Source of the DNA: an uncultured Acidobacteriaceae bacterium
GTDB lineage: Bacteria; Acidobacteriota; Terriglobia; Terriglobales; Acidobacteriaceae
Direction of reading: 5' to 3'
Assembly: GCA_963830295.1 (NCBI GenBank)
Contig: CAWHLT010000005.1
Coordinates: 292,202-356,201 of the forward strand
DNA length: 64,000 nt
The notes below the pieces were generated by a model. The model worked only from the letters and a program-made list of their open reading frames with translations, was not told the origin of the DNA and made no database searches. Of the stretch, positions 1-9,750 are shown in pieces. Within the stretch, counting starts at the first letter, position 1. Each line of letters begins with the position of its first letter. Both the position numbers and the translations under genes were made by a program.

Positions 1-2562
1 TGCACCAATCCGCTGTTCGGCCCGTCTCTCGGATACAGCAACAGTGCGGAAGCCAACTGCAACAACCCGAACCTTGATGGAGCAAATGGACGGGCCGACG
101 TCATCGATACGGTTGGGGGCTCGGGAGGAGTGAGCAATTGCACCACCCCCACCGGCTCCAGTCCCTTGAATTGCGCCGGAGGATACAGCAAACCCTCCTG
201 GCAAACCGGAATCGGCGTGCCGCCTGACGGCAAGCGCGACTTGCCCGATGTGTCGCTATTTGCCAGCAATGGCTTTGTGAACTCCGCCTACATCATTTGC
301 CAGTCTGACCAAACTGGCGGCTGCAACTTGCAGTCGGAGGAGTTTCTCCTCTTTGGCGGCACTTCCGTCTCCTCGCCCGCCTTCGCCGGAATCATGGCCC
401 TCGTCAACCAGCAGACCGGATCGCGCCAGGGCAACGCCAACTACGTCTTCTACAAACTGGCAGCCCAAGACACGCTCTCGAGCTGCAACTCCAGCTCCAG
501 CCCCGCCAGCACCTGCATCTTTAATGACGTTACCTATGGGACAAACGCCCTGCCCTGCGTCGCCGGCAGCCCCAACTGCACCACCTCTTCCGGCGACAAG
601 TACGGCATCCTCAACGGCTACAGCGCCGGCACCGGCTACGACCAGGCCACCGGCTTAGGCTCGGTGAATGCAAACAATCTGGTGACGCTGTGGAATTCGG
701 TAACTACGCTGCCCTCGACTACGACGCTGAACAGCCTCACGCCCACAACCATCACACACGGCCAGCCAGTAACTTTCAGCGTCACCGTGAAGCCGCAAAC
801 AGGGGCAGGAACGCCCACTGGTGAAATCTCGCTGCAAGGCGGTTCGGGGGGAACAACTCCAGCCAGCACGGCCGTCAACTTGTCGAATGGCGCGGCCTCA
901 GGGACCACTGATCTTCTGCCCGGCGGAACGTACTCGGTGACAGCCCACTATCCCGGCGACAGCACATATGCCGCCAGCGATTCCACTCCGATCAGCGTGA
1001 CGGTCAACAAAGAGAACAGCCAGCCTCAGGCTTTCCTGATCACATTCGACAGCAGTGGAAGCATCATTAGCAGCAACACCAATACAGCCGTCTATGGCTC
1101 GCCCTACATATTGCGGGTGAACGTGGAAAATTCTGCCGGAGCAATGTGCACGGCAGTCAGCGCCACAGCCGCAACCGCATGCCCCTCCGGCACCGTCACC
1201 ATGACCAACAACGGCTCCGCACTTGATGCTGGGGCCTACACGCTAAACAGCTATGGATACTTTGAGGACCTCACCGTTCAACTCCCCGGCGGAACAGACT
1301 CGGTGAAGGCTACGTATGCGGGCGACACCAGCTTCAACGCCAGCATGGCAACACAAGCGATTACCATAACACCCGCGACCACGACCGCCACCGCGCCGAA
1401 TCTCGGCGGAGATGCGTGGGCCTTGGTTGGCGTTGAAACAAGCGTAGGCACTCTCGTGCAAACCCACAGTACAGGCGCGGCGCCGACTGGCACCGTTACA
1501 TTCTCCAGCAATGGGACCCCGTTGCCCGGCACCGTCTACTATTCCCCCGTCGCGGGTTCTGGCACGGCGACAGCTTACCTCGGTGCGTACCTGTACACTA
1601 CATTCTCCGCGGCGGGCACCCTGATGGTCACCGCTACCTATAGCGGTGACGGGAATTACGGTCCTTCAACCTCCATAGTAGGAAGCATCAAGGTGATATA
1701 TCCGCAGCCCACCCTGACGCTTTCTCCCACTTCTCAGTCAGTTCCGGCCGGAACTAATGTGGCGTTGACCGCATTCGTTGACACCACAAGCAAGGGCGCT
1801 ACGCCAACGGGCACCGTGACCTTTTACAACTCGCTCAACAGCTCGCCGATACAGAGCGTGCCGGTGACTGGAACTACCGATATGAGTGGCAACACAGCCG
1901 CTCAAGCCGTATTGTCGTTCGTTCCGCCAACCTCCGAAACCGTGTACGCTCTCTACAACGGCGATGCGAATTACTTCTCCACGCAGTCGACCTCCTCAGT
2001 GTCCTTCACTGTCACCGGAACCGACTTTGGAATCTTCTCAAACCCGACCAGTGTGACAGTGCTGAAAGGAGGAGGAGGAGGAGTTAACCTAAGTATCGTC
2101 GGCCAGTCCAACTACACCGGTACCATCAACTTCACGCCATCCTCGTGCTCCGGTCTCCCGGCTGAGACCACCTGCAGCTTCTCGCCTGCATCCCTCACGG
2201 GGAGCGGTCCAGTCTCCATAACTATCCAAACCACCCCTTTCCAAGCCCAGAACCGGCCTGGGGGCACTTCCGGCAGCATGGTCGCCCGGGCTGCGGCAGG
2301 CGGACTCATTCTCGGCGGGATATTCCTGTTCGGGGTTCCATCGAAGCAGCGCCGCAAATGCGCACTGGTCGCGCTGGTATTGGTCGCGTTATTGACGATC
2401 CTTCCCAGCTGTGGCGGTGGAGGAGGGGGTGGCGGCGGTGGTGGGGGCGGCGGGAATACCGGCACTCCGACCGGCATCTCCACGATAACCGTGACGGCGA
2501 TGAGCGGTTCCGGCAGCACTGCATTGACACATACAGCAACCTTCCAACTGGTCGTGCAGTAA
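1..2562 (+). CDS. Sedolisin (S53) family serine peptidase, C-terminal part of the catalytic domain, followed by a long array of bacterial Ig-like repeats. The 5-prime end lies outside the window.
   Basis: Frame 1 is open from base 1, upstream of listed ORF 130..2562. GGSGGVS and GGTSVSSPAFAGIMAL match the oxyanion and catalytic-Ser region of S53 peptidases. About 650 aa of Thr/Ser/Gly-rich repeats with Y-x-GD-x-x-Y/F motifs follow, then hydrophobic C-terminal segments. Confidence 0.8.
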   Translation, partial: CTNPLFGPSLGYSNSAEANCNNPNLDGANGRADVIDTVGGSGGVSNCTTPTGSSPLNCAGGYSKPSWQTGIGVPPDGKRDLPDVSLFASNGFVNSAYIICQSDQTGGCNLQSEEFLLFGGTSVSSPAFAGIMALVNQQTGSRQGNANYVFYKLAAQDTLSSCNSSSSPASTCIFNDVTYGTNALPCVAGSPNCTTSSGDKYGILNGYSAGTGYDQATGLGSVNANNLVTLWNSVTTLPSTTTLNSLTPTTITHGQPVTFSVTVKPQTGAGTPTGEISLQGGSGGTTPASTAVNLSNGAASGTTDLLPGGTYSVTAHYPGDSTYAASDSTPISVTVNKENSQPQAFLITFDSSGSIISSNTNTAVYGSPYILRVNVENSAGAMCTAVSATAATACPSGTVTMTNNGSALDAGAYTLNSYGYFEDLTVQLPGGTDSVKATYAGDTSFNASMATQAITITPATTTATAPNLGGDAWALVGVETSVGTLVQTHSTGAAPTGTVTFSSNGTPLPGTVYYSPVAGSGTATAYLGAYLYTTFSAAGTLMVTATYSGDGNYGPSTSIVGSIKVIYPQPTLTLSPTSQSVPAGTNVALTAFVDTTSKGATPTGTVTFYNSLNSSPIQSVPVTGTTDMSGNTAAQAVLSFVPPTSETVYALYNGDANYFSTQSTSSVSFTVTGTDFGIFSNPTSVTVLKGGGGGVNLSIVGQSNYTGTINFTPSSCSGLPAETTCSFSPASLTGSGPVSITIQTTPFQAQNRPGGTSGSMVARAAAGGLILGGIFLFGVPSKQRRKCALVALVLVALLTILPSCGGGGGGGGGGGGGGNTGTPTGISTITVTAMSGSGSTALTHTATFQLVVQ

Positions 2563-2893: not shown

Positions 2894-3116
2894 TACCCTG
2901 TTATAAGAAGGCAAGATTATTCACTTGACAAAGGGTAACGGTAATGGCAATATACTGTCATGGTTGCCGTTACCCATTTCCTTTCTGCGGTTTATCCGGT
3001 AACGCGGGCGTCCCGGAACGCAGCATTCGGCGTAGGTCTCTCTTTATCCCAGCAACCAGCTTCCGTGTTGGCACCCGTTGTAGCGGTGACTTCTTTTCGG
3101 CTTACGAGGTTCTGTC

Positions 3117-4016
3117 ATGACACTCCCTGAGGTTAATACTCTCTACCCTACCGATGATCGCTGCCGTGAACTCTTGGAACGGCTGCGCTGGCCCGAAGGC
3201 GTTATGTGTCCACGCTGCAAGGATACCCACATCTCCCGCCTGAAAGAATACGCCCGGTATGAATGTGCTGCCTGTGAGTACCAGTTCACCGCGACCAGCG
3301 GAACGATATTCCACGATTCCCATCTTCCGTTGCCGATCTGGTTTGTTGCCGTCCTGTTGCTCTGCGAAGCGAAGAAGGGCATGAGCGCGATGCAACTCAA
3401 GCGTACCTTGTGGGGACAGCACAAAGGTTCCTACAAGACTGCATGGTATCTCTGTCACCGAATCCGAGCGGCCATGAAAGAAGTAGATCGGCCTATGCTG
3501 GACGGTACTGTCGAAATGGACGAAACGTATGTGGGCGGAAAGCATGCTGGGCCATGGCTCAAGGCTGCGATGAAGCCAAGGAAGTTGTTATCGGCATTCG
3601 GCAGCGCAATGGTGATCTGCGGTTCTTCCATGCAGCAAGATGCCAAGAGCGGAACACTGGCGAAGTACATCCGAGAGAACGTGAGCACCGATGTGGAAGT
3701 GATTGTGACGGATCGAACTCCCGCCTACCCAAAGCAATGCGGTCTGGCGATGCGGAACACAAGACCGTCAATCACGGCGAAAGAGTACGTCCGTTAGGAA
3801 TGGCGATATTCACACCAACACCGTGGAGTCCGCGTTCTCGCTGCTCAAGCGCGGCATCATGGGAACTGGCACAAGATCAGCGCAAAGCATCTCCCAGCCT
3901 ACCTTGACGAGATGACCTTCCGCTTCAATCGCCGGAAACGCTCCGATTTGTTTATCGACACCTTGCGTCATATGGTTACCGCTGACCCTTTGACTTTCGA
4001 GAAGTTGACGGCTTAG
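3117..4016 (+). pseudogene. IS1595-family (ISXO2-like) transposase, decayed by multiple frameshifts
   Basis: There is an N-terminal zinc ribbon (CPRC..CAAC). DDE_Tnp_IS1595-like segments are readable only by switching frame about six times: ..DETYVGGK / KEVVIGIRQRNGDLRFFH / DAKSGTLAKYIRENVSTDVEVIVTD / AEHKTVNHGE / DIHTNTVESAFSLLKRGIMGT / WHKISAKHLPAYLDEMTFRFNRR. Final stop is at 4014-4016. Confidence 0.85.
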
Positions 4017-4842
4017 GGGGTTGGTTCAGCAACTCCTCGTCAATCAAAGAAAACACCCTTCCCTGTTCAGCGTTCCACCACCTTTTTCGGAATGCGGACT
4101 CCCACCCTTCAATGACTTCTCTTTTCAGCCAGGATGCTTCCGTGGTAGGGAGCATCTGACCTCCGCTAGGCCCCTCCACAATCTTCGATCTCCTAATCGA
4201 CACGACAGTGGTGTACTTGCCGCATGATTCAACGGACTCTTTCGTCATGAAGATTATGTAAGCTGCTAGAACTTCGGCCTGCTCAACAGACATGCCGCGC
4301 CACAGTTTCCCTAAAAATAGTTCGGCAAATGTGCTACCCATCCCTATAGCCTTGCACGGAAAGGCGGGATTGATGACGGTTTTTTCTGTTGTAAAGAATG
4401 CCGTTATGTTATGGCGCTGAACTGCAAACAGCATCTCCACTTCTGGCCGCTTTCGCTCAGGGAGAGGGGAGAATGGGATAATGTGTTCTTTGTAGAAAGT
4501 CTTTATGCATTGCTCAAATTTGTGGTTTAGTGTCTCTGCTTTAGGGAGTGCCTTCGGCATGGCCACAGCTATTTCTGGCATCCCTTGAATGGGAAGTTTT
4601 GGATTTGACAAGAAGACGCCCCCCATTCGCCCAGTCAATGCTTGAACATATCCTGAGTCACCCGCCCCAGCGATAACGCAACTCGAAATACACCGCCCAC
4701 GAAACGTATCGGGTTCTCCTTCTGGACAGTAAAAGCACTGAATCTTTCCCTTCGTCCCCTTCATGTAATCGCCAGTGCTTTCTTGTGAATCAGCGGCGAC
4801 CACTAACCCTTCGTGCGCCATCACTCCTATGGCGATTGTCAT
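3976..4842 (-). CDS. Proteasome-beta / HslV-like (MEROPS T1, Ntn-hydrolase) protein with a C-terminal extension. The 3-prime end overlaps the IS1595 remnant.
   Basis: M-TIAIGVMAHEGLVVAADSQESTGDYMKGTKGK gives Thr1, Asp17 and Lys32/33 spacing. IAGAGDSGY and AIGMGSTFAE..MSVEQAEVLAAYII match later T1 motifs. GAGAGGAAG lies 6 nt upstream of the ATG at 4842. The listed ORF extends to 4902. Confidence 0.6.
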   Translation of the reverse strand: MTIAIGVMAHEGLVVAADSQESTGDYMKGTKGKIQCFYCPEGEPDTFRGRCISSCVIAGAGDSGYVQALTGRMGGVFLSNPKLPIQGMPEIAVAMPKALPKAETLNHKFEQCIKTFYKEHIIPFSPLPERKRPEVEMLFAVQRHNITAFFTTEKTVINPAFPCKAIGMGSTFAELFLGKLWRGMSVEQAEVLAAYIIFMTKESVESCGKYTTVVSIRRSKIVEGPSGGQMLPTTEASWLKREVIEGWESAFRKRWWNAEQGRVFSLIDEELLNQPPKPSTSRKSKGQR

Positions 4843-5023
4843 TTGCTTCCTCTCTGGAAGCCGCTCTTGTATCGGATACGGCTTCGGAAACGGCTTAATC
4901 ATGCGCCGCCTCCGTACCCTTGGTCAAGGGTATAATCGTGTAAGAAGGTAAACACCGTCGGCTGGGTGGACGACCCATTTTGAAACTGGTGTACGATTTA
5001 CTCGCGTCTATCCATCCACCAAA

Positions 5024-7938: not shown

Positions 7939-9750
7939 CTAGCGCGGGCCTTCTGCCTCGCCCTTCAGCCACGCTGTCCGTCGCGCGCGCTGCTGTGCGG
8001 TAACGTTTTCCATGTCTTTGAGTTCGTAGGAGATTTCTTCGCGGCTTTCTACTTTCCACTTCAACTCGCGCTCTGCACCGCGCCGCCCGCGGATTTTCAC
8101 GGTAATCGTGTCGCCCGGATTCAGCCTTGCCATCTCCTGGGAAGATTCTTGTCCTGCCATCTTTCCATCGATCTCAACAACAGTGTCACCCACCTGCAGG
8201 CCGGCACGTTCCGCCTCACTGCCCGCCGTCACCGCAGCCACAGCCATTGGACCATCAAAGTTTCGCGAGGCCACAAACCCGGCATCCGCGATTGTGTTTG
8301 TCCCTTGCACCACATGCAGTCCCACACTGCGGAAAAAGTCATTCCACGGAATCTCATCGGTTCCCGAAACATACTTCGTGAAAAACCATCCCAGGTCCGC
8401 GTGGCTGACGGCTTCGGCAGCTTCGCGCACGCCGTCTGAGTCGGCGAAGAAGCGTCCCTTCTTAGCATAGTTCTGATTCATCCATTGAAAGACCTCGCGC
8501 AAGGACGCCTGTCCGTGGCTGGCCTCGCGCACCGCAAGATCGAGCGTGATGCCCAGCAACTCCCCCTTGTTGTAATACGAAATGCTGCGCTCCGGACGCC
8601 GGTAGTATGCGTCGCCCTCAAGCCACGCATCCAGACTCGACTCTTCCGCTGATTGCGTCAGGTGGGCTGGACGCCGCTCCAGTTCGCTGATCCCAGCCGC
8701 CAGGTCCTGCTCGAAGCGGGGTTCGCCGAGCAGGCTGCCGCGTAACTCGATGATGTCTGCCGCCGTGCTGGTGCATCCTTCGCTGAACCAGAGAGCCCGC
8801 GTGTAATTTTCTTTCGTATAATCCACCGGTTCCAGCGTCTGCGGGCGGATGCGTTTTACATTCCAAAGATGAAAGAACTCGTGCGCCGTCACCGAAGCCA
8901 GCGCGTCGGGGGCGCGCGCCAGGGCCTCGGCATTCAGAGAGATCGCGGTCGAGTAAGCGTGCTCCATGCCTCCGCCCGCCGGTCCGTGCGGAAAGTGATA
9001 AAGAAACATGTAGCTGTCGAAGGGACGATCGTTCATCCAACTGGTGGCAGCCGCGACGATCTTGCGCAGCATGGCCGTAAGCTTTTCCATGTCGTAGTCG
9101 CCCGGTTCGGCGTCGACAATCACGCGATAGTGTCCGCCGCCCTTGTCAAAATCAGATTCCTGAAACGTTCCGATTTCAACCGGAGAATCCACCAGCCGAT
9201 CATAGTTGTCAGCGCTAAAACCGCCTTCCGGGATTGAAGACAGTGGCGTAGCCACGCGCCATTTCTCGGGGACGTGAGTGAACCGCACGACCATCGGCCC
9301 GTTGCGCGCGTCCACGGGATACATAAGAACCTGCGCCAGATTGAAAAATGCATGATGCGAATTAAACTGCGCACCAAACGGCCCGAAGGAATCGACAAAC
9401 ATCTGATATTCGACGACGGCGCCGCCCTGCGCGCCCGCGATCTGCCAGCGGCTCTTATCGAGCGCACGCACTGTGAGCGCGTGGCCCGGCCGATCTTTCG
9501 CGCGCACCCAATTCACGTATTGCGCGAAGTCGCGTACCTGGTACAGCGCATTCCATACTGGAAGCTGCAACTCCCGTTGTGCCGCGCCTTCCGGCAATTG
9601 GATCTGCACCTCGACCAGATGCTGCTCAGGATTCGACAGCGAAATTGTGTAGTTGGTTGCGGCGCCGCAACGAGCCAGGGCCATCCCGAAAAACAGCGCG
9701 AAGCGAAACATCTGTCGAGTAGTATGTGCGGTCACGATCGAATGCCTCAT
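7939..9750 (-). CDS. M61 family glycyl aminopeptidase with C-terminal PDZ domain
   Basis: HEFFHLWNVKRIRP zinc motif typical of M61. C-terminal GLQVGDTVVEIDGK PDZ-like segment. A signal peptide is likely from Met14 (alternative start 9711). Confidence 0.85.
   Translation of the reverse strand: MRHSIVTAHTTRQMFRFALFFGMALARCGAATNYTISLSNPEQHLVEVQIQLPEGAAQRELQLPVWNALYQVRDFAQYVNWVRAKDRPGHALTVRALDKSRWQIAGAQGGAVVEYQMFVDSFGPFGAQFNSHHAFFNLAQVLMYPVDARNGPMVVRFTHVPEKWRVATPLSSIPEGGFSADNYDRLVDSPVEIGTFQESDFDKGGGHYRVIVDAEPGDYDMEKLTAMLRKIVAAATSWMNDRPFDSYMFLYHFPHGPAGGGMEHAYSTAISLNAEALARAPDALASVTAHEFFHLWNVKRIRPQTLEPVDYTKENYTRALWFSEGCTSTAADIIELRGSLLGEPRFEQDLAAGISELERRPAHLTQSAEESSLDAWLEGDAYYRRPERSISYYNKGELLGITLDLAVREASHGQASLREVFQWMNQNYAKKGRFFADSDGVREAAEAVSHADLGWFFTKYVSGTDEIPWNDFFRSVGLHVVQGTNTIADAGFVASRNFDGPMAVAAVTAGSEAERAGLQVGDTVVEIDGKMAGQESSQEMARLNPGDTITVKIRGRRGAERELKWKVESREEISYELKDMENVTAQQRARRTAWLKGEAEGPR

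Follow-up and report, generated by a model that had tools for sequence, protein, structure and literature searches.

Insertion sequences (ISs) are normally thought to encode only the needs of their own movement. Some lineages keep a second gene within the element throughout, as with IstB in IS21, TnpB in IS200/IS605 and InsA in IS1; their roles are known (ATPase regulator, RNA-guided nuclease and repressor, respectively), and none is a protease. In the IS1595 family, an 8-bp target-site duplication (TSD) and extra passenger genes have been described (Siguier 2009, as cited in PMC7986276 and PMC3129680). The transporter ISs (tISs) of this family combine a transposase made of Zn-ribbon and DDE domains, short inverted repeats (IRs) and the 8-bp TSD with an extra gene between the IRs, and measure 2-3 kb instead of about 1 kb. 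Their subgroups include those named ISNwi1+, ISPna2+ and ISNha5. This work concerns a gene in a 64,000-nt stretch of DNA (the window) from an uncultured Acidobacteriaceae bacterium (GenBank assembly GCA_963830295.1, contig CAWHLT010000005.1, positions 292,202 to 356,201), which a sequence-only reading had described as an orphan N-terminal nucleophile (Ntn) hydrolase, proteasome-beta/HslV-like, abutting a decayed IS. The hydrolase was borne out by fold, profile and relatives, as detailed below, but the gene is no orphan: it belongs to an IS1595-family insertion sequence with two genes, of which it is the conserved second.

On the protein side, the closest described systems are members of the proteasome family of threonine (T1) peptidases. 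The beta subunits of the 20S proteasome have alpha partners and an autocatalytic propeptide. Bacterial HslV (ClpQ), the partner of HslU, has the proteasome fold and the catalytic residues Thr1, Asp17 and Lys33, and starts with Met-Thr without a propeptide. Anbu resembles both alpha and beta subunits, keeps C-terminal elements and is accompanied by ATP-grasp, alpha-E and transglutaminase neighbours. Fuchs, Alva & Lupas 2021 (PMC8665760) reported 22 new uncharacterised proteasome homologues, e.g. PMI, WPH and PHI, stated that genomic context gave them no indication of function, and refer to neither transposons nor Acidobacteria; the same paper describes PPH (about 140 aa) and AAH, which are borne on phages.

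The boundaries of the element in the window (table 1) are supported by comparison with an independent homologue locus, L110 (L numbers denote the homologue loci or contigs compared here, and P numbers representatives of the Ntn protein). Blastn homology between the two ends at the tips of the IRs, covering 2912-4943 only, with unrelated flanks; L110 has an Ntn protein 93.8% identical to that of the window, an intact 305-aa transposase and a TSD of its own, ATTATTTT. The IRs, the TSD and the limits of this homology together place the element at 2912-4940 and make the Ntn gene part of the transposable unit. Rather than abutting the IS, the gene lies within its IRs and TSD, in a two-gene unit that stands at dozens of sites. 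The window terminus is also present in 51 metagenomic loci and in L001, L002 and L004, where the same termini enclose both genes (TSD ACTGAAGT in L001 and CCAAATCG in L004, none in L002). The insertion point is 76 bp upstream of lpxD (confirmed by TIGR01853, 350 bits), with TAAGAAGG duplicated. Each gene begins near an IR with an inward-facing TTGAC(A/C) hexamer, which in the left IR (IRL) is the -35-like TTGACA, and the ends of the element (...GATTAT...) resemble the ISNwi1-group consensus. The Zn-ribbon and IS1595-type DDE domains, the IRs and the 8-bp TSD assign the element to the IS1595 family, and the non-transposase gene mobilised between the IRs makes it a tIS. Both the low-GC islet and the foreign origin proposed for the gene held up: GC content is 0.498 in the Ntn coding sequence (CDS) and 0.522 in the whole element, against 0.598 and 0.579 in the flanks, and the gene is mobile, sitting within an IS.

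This arrangement is not peculiar to the window. In the first three homologue loci inspected, an intact IS1595 transposase gene comes after the Ntn gene, converging on it, and the other neighbours all differ. Among homologues of at least about 44% identity, a search from the Ntn side found a convergent IS1595 transposase in every locus with usable flank. From the transposase side, seven transposases were aligned, metagenome contigs were scanned, yielding at least 589 relatives, and the 80 best loci were retained; a convergent Ntn open reading frame (ORF) 3′ of the transposase was found in 30 of these loci by tblastn, in 45 by profile and in 67 after five profile iterations. The other 13 comprise ten that run short of contig, a deletion derivative (L046) and two loci with different cargo (L040 and L082), so that a convergent Ntn gene lies inside the element in 67 of 70 informative loci (about 96%). 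Both termini were located in the 51 metagenomic loci, with the Ntn ORF inside, and 36 of these have perfect 8-bp TSDs of many target sequences. When the eight most divergent ORFs were checked against Pfam, five matched PF00227 only, three of them above threshold. All 11 genome matches are metagenome-assembled genomes (MAGs) of Acidobacteriota, as single loci in different MAGs, and a tblastn search of plasmids with the Ntn protein gave no match.

Linkage of the Ntn gene is near-universal in the acidobacterial IS1595 clade and recurs in a sister IS1-type clade. More distant Ntn relatives have the same convergent, overlapping layout with IS1-type DDE transposases (PF03400): L010:3942-6102 is a complete IS1-type element with 21-nt IRs GGTAGTGGTCTcGTTTCAAATT and TSD CCCAGCCG, and in L012:2971-4933 an IS1-type transposase adjoins the Ntn gene. 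The 3′ overlap measures 23-74 nt in IS1-type relatives, with 71 nt in L106 (3001-4708) and 74 nt in L108 (1550-2963). Proteins paired with IS1-type transposases mostly begin MTIALGIL, and a tail recurrent among database representatives, KRGRKGQPPSxE, probably marks the IS1-type overlap. The most distant relatives inspected, L013 and L024, have no recognisable neighbouring transposase. An inspection of homologue neighbourhoods, as the sequence-only reading had advised, therefore shows intact relatives within IS1595- or IS1-type elements nearly always, rather than in Anbu, BPH or HslUV operons; an alpha-subunit gene is found in none of the loci examined, and the Anbu-operon partners are absent from the Pfam-annotated homologue loci inspected. 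In the window, as had been noted, no ATPase, alpha-subunit or Anbu-operon gene adjoins the Ntn gene, whose only immediate neighbours are the transposase remnant and lpxD. Unlike the tISs described so far, the present elements carry an extra gene of one superfamily across about 96% of a whole IS clade, always convergent with and usually overlapping the transposase 3′ end, and the arrangement recurs in IS1-type elements.

Several elements vary on this plan. L046:3298-4778 (1,481 bp) has an intact transposase, a perfect TSD ACTTCAGT and a 36-aa N-terminal Ntn stub, and looks as if the protease gene had been lost by a natural deletion. In L082 (1151-2158, minus strand), the Ntn slot of an IS1595 element holds a 336-aa Trypsin_2 peptidase (PF13365, 28.3 bits), a protease of another class in the same position, which matches PDC-S45, a phage-defence candidate in PADLOC, with E = 2e-9. 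In some elements, 2.6-3.3 kb long, the space between Ntn gene and transposase holds a further small ORF or two (L002:10924-11373, L022:5946-6561 and L032:3227-3775), and those of L002 and L022 have no NCBIfam match. Many TSDs in L025-L104 are palindromes rich in AT that follow the form ACTNNAGT (for example ACTTCAGT in three cases, ACTTTAGT in two, and ACTGAAGT, ACGTAAGT and ATTTAATT), which suggests a target preference or recurrent hot spots. The element encoding P0015 (L016-L021) is present in 16 contigs from several JGI/ENA/Logan samples, always at the same chromosomal site and between identical neighbours, and is apparently an insertion fixed at that single site within one widespread lineage. 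In L004, a SLATT/DUF4231-domain gene (9074-9562), whose family is frequent in conflict systems, stands some 400 bp beyond the end of the IS, maybe by coincidence.

The 308-aa ORF in the window is present exactly as first described, and it is a real, divergent member of the proteasome family of T1 threonine peptidases. Evidence from the single sequence is marginal: NCBIfam models for HslV and for archaeal beta subunits match at E of about 0.03-0.06, and the best phmmer match in the PDB has E = 0.03. Family membership follows from profile, fold and relatives. A family profile matches 180 PDB sequences at E<=1, the best at E = 4.3e-7, and the 60 listed are all proteasome alpha/beta or HslV chains; the relatives L010, L011, L013, L028, L077 and L101 exceed the PF00227 threshold with 23-38 bits. 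The AlphaFold2 (AF2) model of the window protein (predicted local distance difference test, pLDDT, 85.4; predicted template-modelling score, pTM, 0.82) has the proteasome/Anbu fold with its alpha-beta-beta-alpha Ntn sandwich, in agreement with what had been foreseen. Foldseek returned 1,156 PDB matches at E<=1e-3, each of the 50 best being a 20S subunit or Anbu at probability 1.00; among viral structures, the neighbours are HslV-like proteins of phages, which match less well. In an exhaustive search with the profile, the clusters matched (at 50% identity) numbered 2,559 at E<=1e-3, of which 1,187 reached E<=1e-10 and 323 reached E<=1e-30.

Within the superfamily, the protein resembles HslV in fold, Met-Thr start, catalytic residues and bacterial origin. 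It differs from HslV in having no HslU partner, in exceeding it by about 110 residues, among them insertions, a C-terminal hairpin and a long helix, and in residing on a transposable element; the HslV equivalog NF003964 gives only 13.9 bits against a cut-off of 137, and no hslU adjoins the gene. Anbu is the best bacterial structural match (5nyg/5nyj, target-normalised template-modelling score 0.64-0.69, E of about 1e-9), but its operon neighbours are absent here and the sequence similarity is at superfamily level only. Unlike 20S beta subunits, the present family has no alpha partner and no autocatalytic propeptide. With the homologues of PMC8665760, compared by description only, it shares divergence, insertions, C-terminal extensions, retained active-site residues and the lack of an AAA+ partner. 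Phage PPH and AAH and the 'peptidase HslV family' phrog_1040, which L010 matches at E = 8.5e-12, are likewise proteasome-like peptidases on mobile elements, but PPH and AAH are smaller and phage-borne, whereas the present family is IS-borne.

The Thr1/Asp17/Lys32-33 geometry proposed for the protein is supported by conservation. A first homologue search gave 34 homologous clusters, in whose alignment Thr22, Asp38 and Lys53 (1, 17 and 32 when numbered from Thr22 as residue 1) are invariant or nearly invariant; I23, A36, D38, K48, K53, G79-A80-G81 and P143 are invariant and T22 nearly so. In the window protein, the Thr encoded at 4839-4837 would become residue 1 after removal of Met, and Asp17 and Lys32 are intact. 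A full-length profile alignment with the archaeal beta subunit 6z46_H places the Thr, Asp and Lys of the family on Thr1, Glu17 and Lys33, and shows the two blocks singled out earlier as conserved to match known motifs, IAGAGDSGY the Gly47 loop and AIGMGS the GSG motif. Over 63 IS-borne Ntn ORFs, the nucleophile is Thr in 56 and Ser in 3, Asp and Lys are each present in 59, and both Gly motifs are kept in more than 95%. The C-terminal extension of about 70 aa, which had seemed unfamiliar, forms a beta-hairpin and a long helix (261-292) after the core in the AF2 model; extension and tail are common to family members in the 34-cluster alignment. With these features the protein is plausible as a catalytic T1 peptidase, and less likely to be a transpeptidase like connectase.

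In all 58 IS-borne ORFs compared, the codon before Thr is a start codon (ATG in 35, GTG in 22, TTG in 1, with no other Val or Leu codon), preceded by a purine-rich Shine-Dalgarno sequence (SD). Because the -1 codon is always a start codon, translation starts at M-T and the CDS is 3976-4842; the internal ATG at 4842-4840, with GAGAGGAAG before it, and an HslV-like Met-Thr start without propeptide had both been read correctly. The in-frame extension upstream is probably a 5′ leader and not coding. Alternatively, the protein might be a zymogen like 20S beta, made from ATG 4902 with a 20-aa propeptide cut autocatalytically at Met-1|Thr1, and the upstream frame is indeed open (median 27 codons), with a PKP...RLPxRKQ motif conserved with some synonymous changes. 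Against this stand the start codon and its SD, present in every one of the 58 ORFs, the stop that L071 has two codons ahead of the start and the lack of an upstream ATG in many loci; moreover, proteasome autolysis normally requires Gly-1. The block CGGCTTCC within the leader is unchanged, third codon positions included, in all 7 diverse loci compared, one of them an IS1-type relative with 33% identity; this argues for constraint at the nucleotide level. The zymogen is on this evidence quite improbable, and the -1 codon test rules out the propeptide form as the main form, while a minor long isoform from ATG 4902 is possible beside the M-T form. A predicted hairpin, GCUUCC-AGAGA-GGAAGC (4845-4861, 6-bp stem), is present in the minimum free energy fold (z = -3.5) and would sequester the SD; some other loci look compensatory, such as L045 (CUUUC...GGAAAG), and others, L016 and L022, break the stem. 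A consensus scan found a sole promoter-like site for the Ntn gene, the candidate in table 1.

The neighbouring transposase is decayed, as first read. Comparison with the intact transposases of L105, L002 and L110 shows an in-frame stop (3795-3797) and, relative to L110, eight small indels between 3564 and 3867, and its catalytic-Glu block NTVESAFSLLKRG is out of frame; the intact transposases of relatives have PF12760 and PF12762. The indels are of up to 8 nt and confined to about 300 bp, and none occurs in the Ntn gene, which has no indel relative to L110 across 867 nt. The sizes and clustering of the indels and the clean Ntn gene argue against assembly error, with some caution since the source appears to be a MAG. 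As the transposase is dead while both ends and the Ntn gene are intact, the window copy is non-autonomous, mobile only with transposase supplied in trans. The 41-nt antisense overlap of the two genes is real, but the accompanying suggestion that the Ntn gene is truncated or reads through into the IS is excluded: its C-terminus is conserved, and the overlap is native to the intact elements L004, L008, L016, L105 and L110. Opposite the codons of the conserved transposase C-terminus, DPLTFEKLTA, the other strand encodes the Ntn tail STSRKSKGQR, and this basic tail probably arises as a side effect of lying antisense to that C-terminus. Tried on 146 database representatives as a context-free marker of IS linkage, the tail failed, since tails differ between sub-clades.

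Table 1. Positions of the insertion sequence, its genes and its signals in the window.
Feature	Position	Strand	Basis
Left 8-bp target-site duplication copy, TAAGAAGG	2904-2911	.	Same octamer directly outside both inverted repeats
IS1595-family element, 2,029 bp, two convergent genes	2912-4940	.	IRs, TSD, bounds of L110 homology, GC
Left terminal inverted repeat (IRL), CAAGATTATTCACTTGACAAAGGGTA	2912-2937	+	26 nt, 85% complementary to 4915-4940
IS1595-family transposase pseudogene, Zn-ribbon and DDE	3117-4016	+	PF12760 (48 bits), NF033547 (89 bits, cut-off 75), translation, comparison with intact relatives
41-nt antisense overlap of the 3′ ends of both genes	3976-4016	.	Same overlap in L004, L008, L016, L105 and L110
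Ntn ORF, longest frame, 308 aa	3976-4902	-	Same coordinates as in the sequence-only reading
T1 threonine peptidase gene, CDS from the M-T start, 288 codons	3976-4842	-	Fold, profile against PDB, homologues, start-codon test, catalytic residues, dN/dS against L110
In-frame upstream extension, 20 codons, MIKPFPKPYPIQERLPERKQ; probably 5′ leader	4843-4902	-	Open and conserved in many loci, not all
Invariant block CGGCTTCC (4856-4863) and SD GGAAGC (4845-4850)	4845-4863	-	7 of 7 diverse loci
Promoter-like candidate, TTGACC-18 nt-CATGAT	4898-4927	-	Consensus match alone; -35 hexamer inside IRR
Right terminal inverted repeat (IRR), reverse complement CACGATTATACCCTTGACCAAGGGTA	4915-4940	-	26-nt inverted repeat
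Right 8-bp target-site duplication copy, TAAGAAGG	4941-4948	.	Same octamer directly outside both inverted repeats

Ratios of non-synonymous to synonymous substitution rates (dN/dS) of 0.082 (L044/L063), 0.083 (L001/L002) and 0.129 (window against L110) indicate that the Ntn gene is under purifying selection. Over 57 unique elements compared in pairs, the transposases are 62-77% identical (median 68%) and the Ntn proteins 20-32% (median 25%); in element pairs with transposases at least 80% identical, the Ntn proteins mostly share 19-34%. Between the window and L110, the Ntn half with the right end has 93% nucleotide identity (dS 0.24), and the transposase half with the left end 76-77% (dS about 2). 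The two sequences thus read as a recombinant mosaic, in which Ntn modules have been recombined between transposase backbones.

Outside the element, a 340-bp non-coding stretch of lower GC (2563-2903) separates it from the upstream gene and contains a G-rich run, GAGGGGGGAGGGGGGAGGGGGGG (2866-2895), directly outside the left target duplication. The upstream ORF (130-2562, plus strand, 810 aa, with a 14-Gly run), called the S53 gene in the sequence-only reading, probably begins before the window; its sole match is the NCBIfam 'lipo-invert C-terminal anchoring domain' (63.7 bits). Rfam has no family anywhere in the window.

We consider it highly probable that the locus is a two-gene IS carrying a conserved T1 peptidase, translated from M-T and moving with the element. 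The decayed transposase, the overlapping 3′ ends and the low GC could also be read as a horizontally acquired orphan that stands by chance beside an unrelated decayed IS and is perhaps truncated by it; this is refuted by the position of the gene inside IRs and TSD, the identical architecture at dozens of unrelated sites and the conservation of C-terminus and overlap in intact elements, and it retains almost no probability. The two-gene IS moves the T1 peptidase gene in a partnership near-obligate in the clade and mirrored in IS1-type elements. In the mechanism we propose, methionine aminopeptidase would remove Met and expose the Thr1 nucleophile, as in HslV. Translation of the Ntn gene would be restrained by the SD-sequestering hairpin, and its expression by antisense transcription across the conserved 3′ overlap. 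The protease itself may serve the element, for example by setting the level or driving the removal of the transposase or of some host factor that keeps the element in check. Such an accessory role is a guess, offered tentatively, and is favoured because the Ntn gene is nearly universal, positionally fixed and old.

A number of points weigh against this account or parts of it. Most IS1595 elements transpose with a transposase alone, and three plasmid-borne IS1595 copies have no Ntn gene; their transposases are 35-39% identical, and at such a distance their lack of the gene marks the linkage as clade-specific. The most divergent ORFs were included via iterative profiles, which are prone to drift, and three of the eight checked had no Pfam match. 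The enzyme is a predicted one, from sequence and a structure model. A PF00227 search, proposed earlier as a check, succeeded for relatives but left the window protein by itself at 20.6 bits, just below the gathering cut-off of 22.4. In the alignment with 6z46_H, the positions of beta-subunit Ser129, Asp166 and Ser169 are taken in the family by a variable residue, Val224 and Cys227, so that full catalytic competence is not guaranteed; S190, E222 and E225 lie nearby and might substitute for the missing supporting residues. Co-divergence was sought as evidence of partnership and not found: Ntn and transposase divergence are hardly correlated (r = -0.18 over 7 loci; Mantel r = 0.14 over 57 loci), and this absence of co-evolution argues against a specific physical complex of the two proteins. 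Choosing the best 80 loci by transposase match raises transposase identities and inflates the contrast with the Ntn proteins, although it cannot explain the pairwise reversals in identity. Finally, in the window the Ntn gene outlived its transposase, which fits a benefit to the host at least as well.

Two other functions fit parts of this record. The protease might be a hyperdiverse anti-phage, anti-plasmid or addiction-type effector carried as IS cargo, its variable parts setting target specificity and the IS slot taking in recombined alleles. A median Ntn identity of 25% under purifying selection within lineages speaks for such a conflict cassette, as do modules shuffled between backbones, a Trypsin_2 peptidase matching PDC-S45 in the slot of L082, occasional small ORFs beside the Ntn gene (L002, L022 and L032) and a window gene intact after the death of its transposase; proteasome homologues on phages (PPH and AAH; PMC8665760) are a further parallel. 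Yet ordinary cargo is sporadic, whereas the Ntn gene is found in about 96% of informative elements, in fixed orientation and overlap and in two IS families, no sensor or partner gene is evident, and PADLOC models gave no match to five diverse Ntn proteins; PHROGs gave none to the window protein. This reading comes a close second, a serious possibility that we nonetheless lean against. A housekeeping peptidase for stress or quality control, like an ATP-independent 20S or HslV, spread by the IS and of benefit to the host, would agree with purifying selection, with the survival of the window copy and with P0015 fixed at one chromosomal site; identities of about 25% on near-identical backbones would be unexpected for it, all 11 genome matches are single loci in different MAGs, and a chaperone or ATPase partner is missing, which together make it improbable. 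Roles other than service to the element or a part in conflict are, as a group, unlikely.

Neither the IS family nor the tIS concept nor the protein fold is new in itself; the conserved pairing appears to be. A literature search combining proteasome or peptidase terms with IS1595, transposase or IS1 passenger, with ISfinder, where a named entry may list this ORF as 'hypothetical', outside its scope, found no description of it, and a review of acidobacterial mobile elements makes no mention of it. Publicly, such Ntn proteins are labelled 'hypothetical', 'HslV subunit' or '20S subunit', which gives no hint that the gene sits inside an IS. Earlier conserved extra genes of ISs (IstB, TnpB/IscB) each revealed new biology. 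Retention of a threonine protease in essentially every member of a clade and in a sister IS family points to selection for proteolysis in the life of the element, and proteolysis is absent from current models of transposition control. The family provides a concrete, testable context where the survey of 22 homologues found none, and an element of 2 kb with two genes, of which L105 and L110 offer intact copies, is small enough to make genetics in a surrogate host feasible. It may be, though we put it forward with reserve, that these T1 peptidases are an unrecognised class of IS-encoded accessory protein, an integral partner of a large IS1595/IS1 radiation that acts for the element. If so, the class would comprise hundreds to thousands of 50%-identity clusters, so far in Acidobacteriota, and its members might control the abundance or removal of transposase, counter host restriction of transposition or act as diversifying addiction or defence effectors. 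For proteasome homologues beyond 20S, HslV and Anbu, genomic context would then have given its first clue to function.

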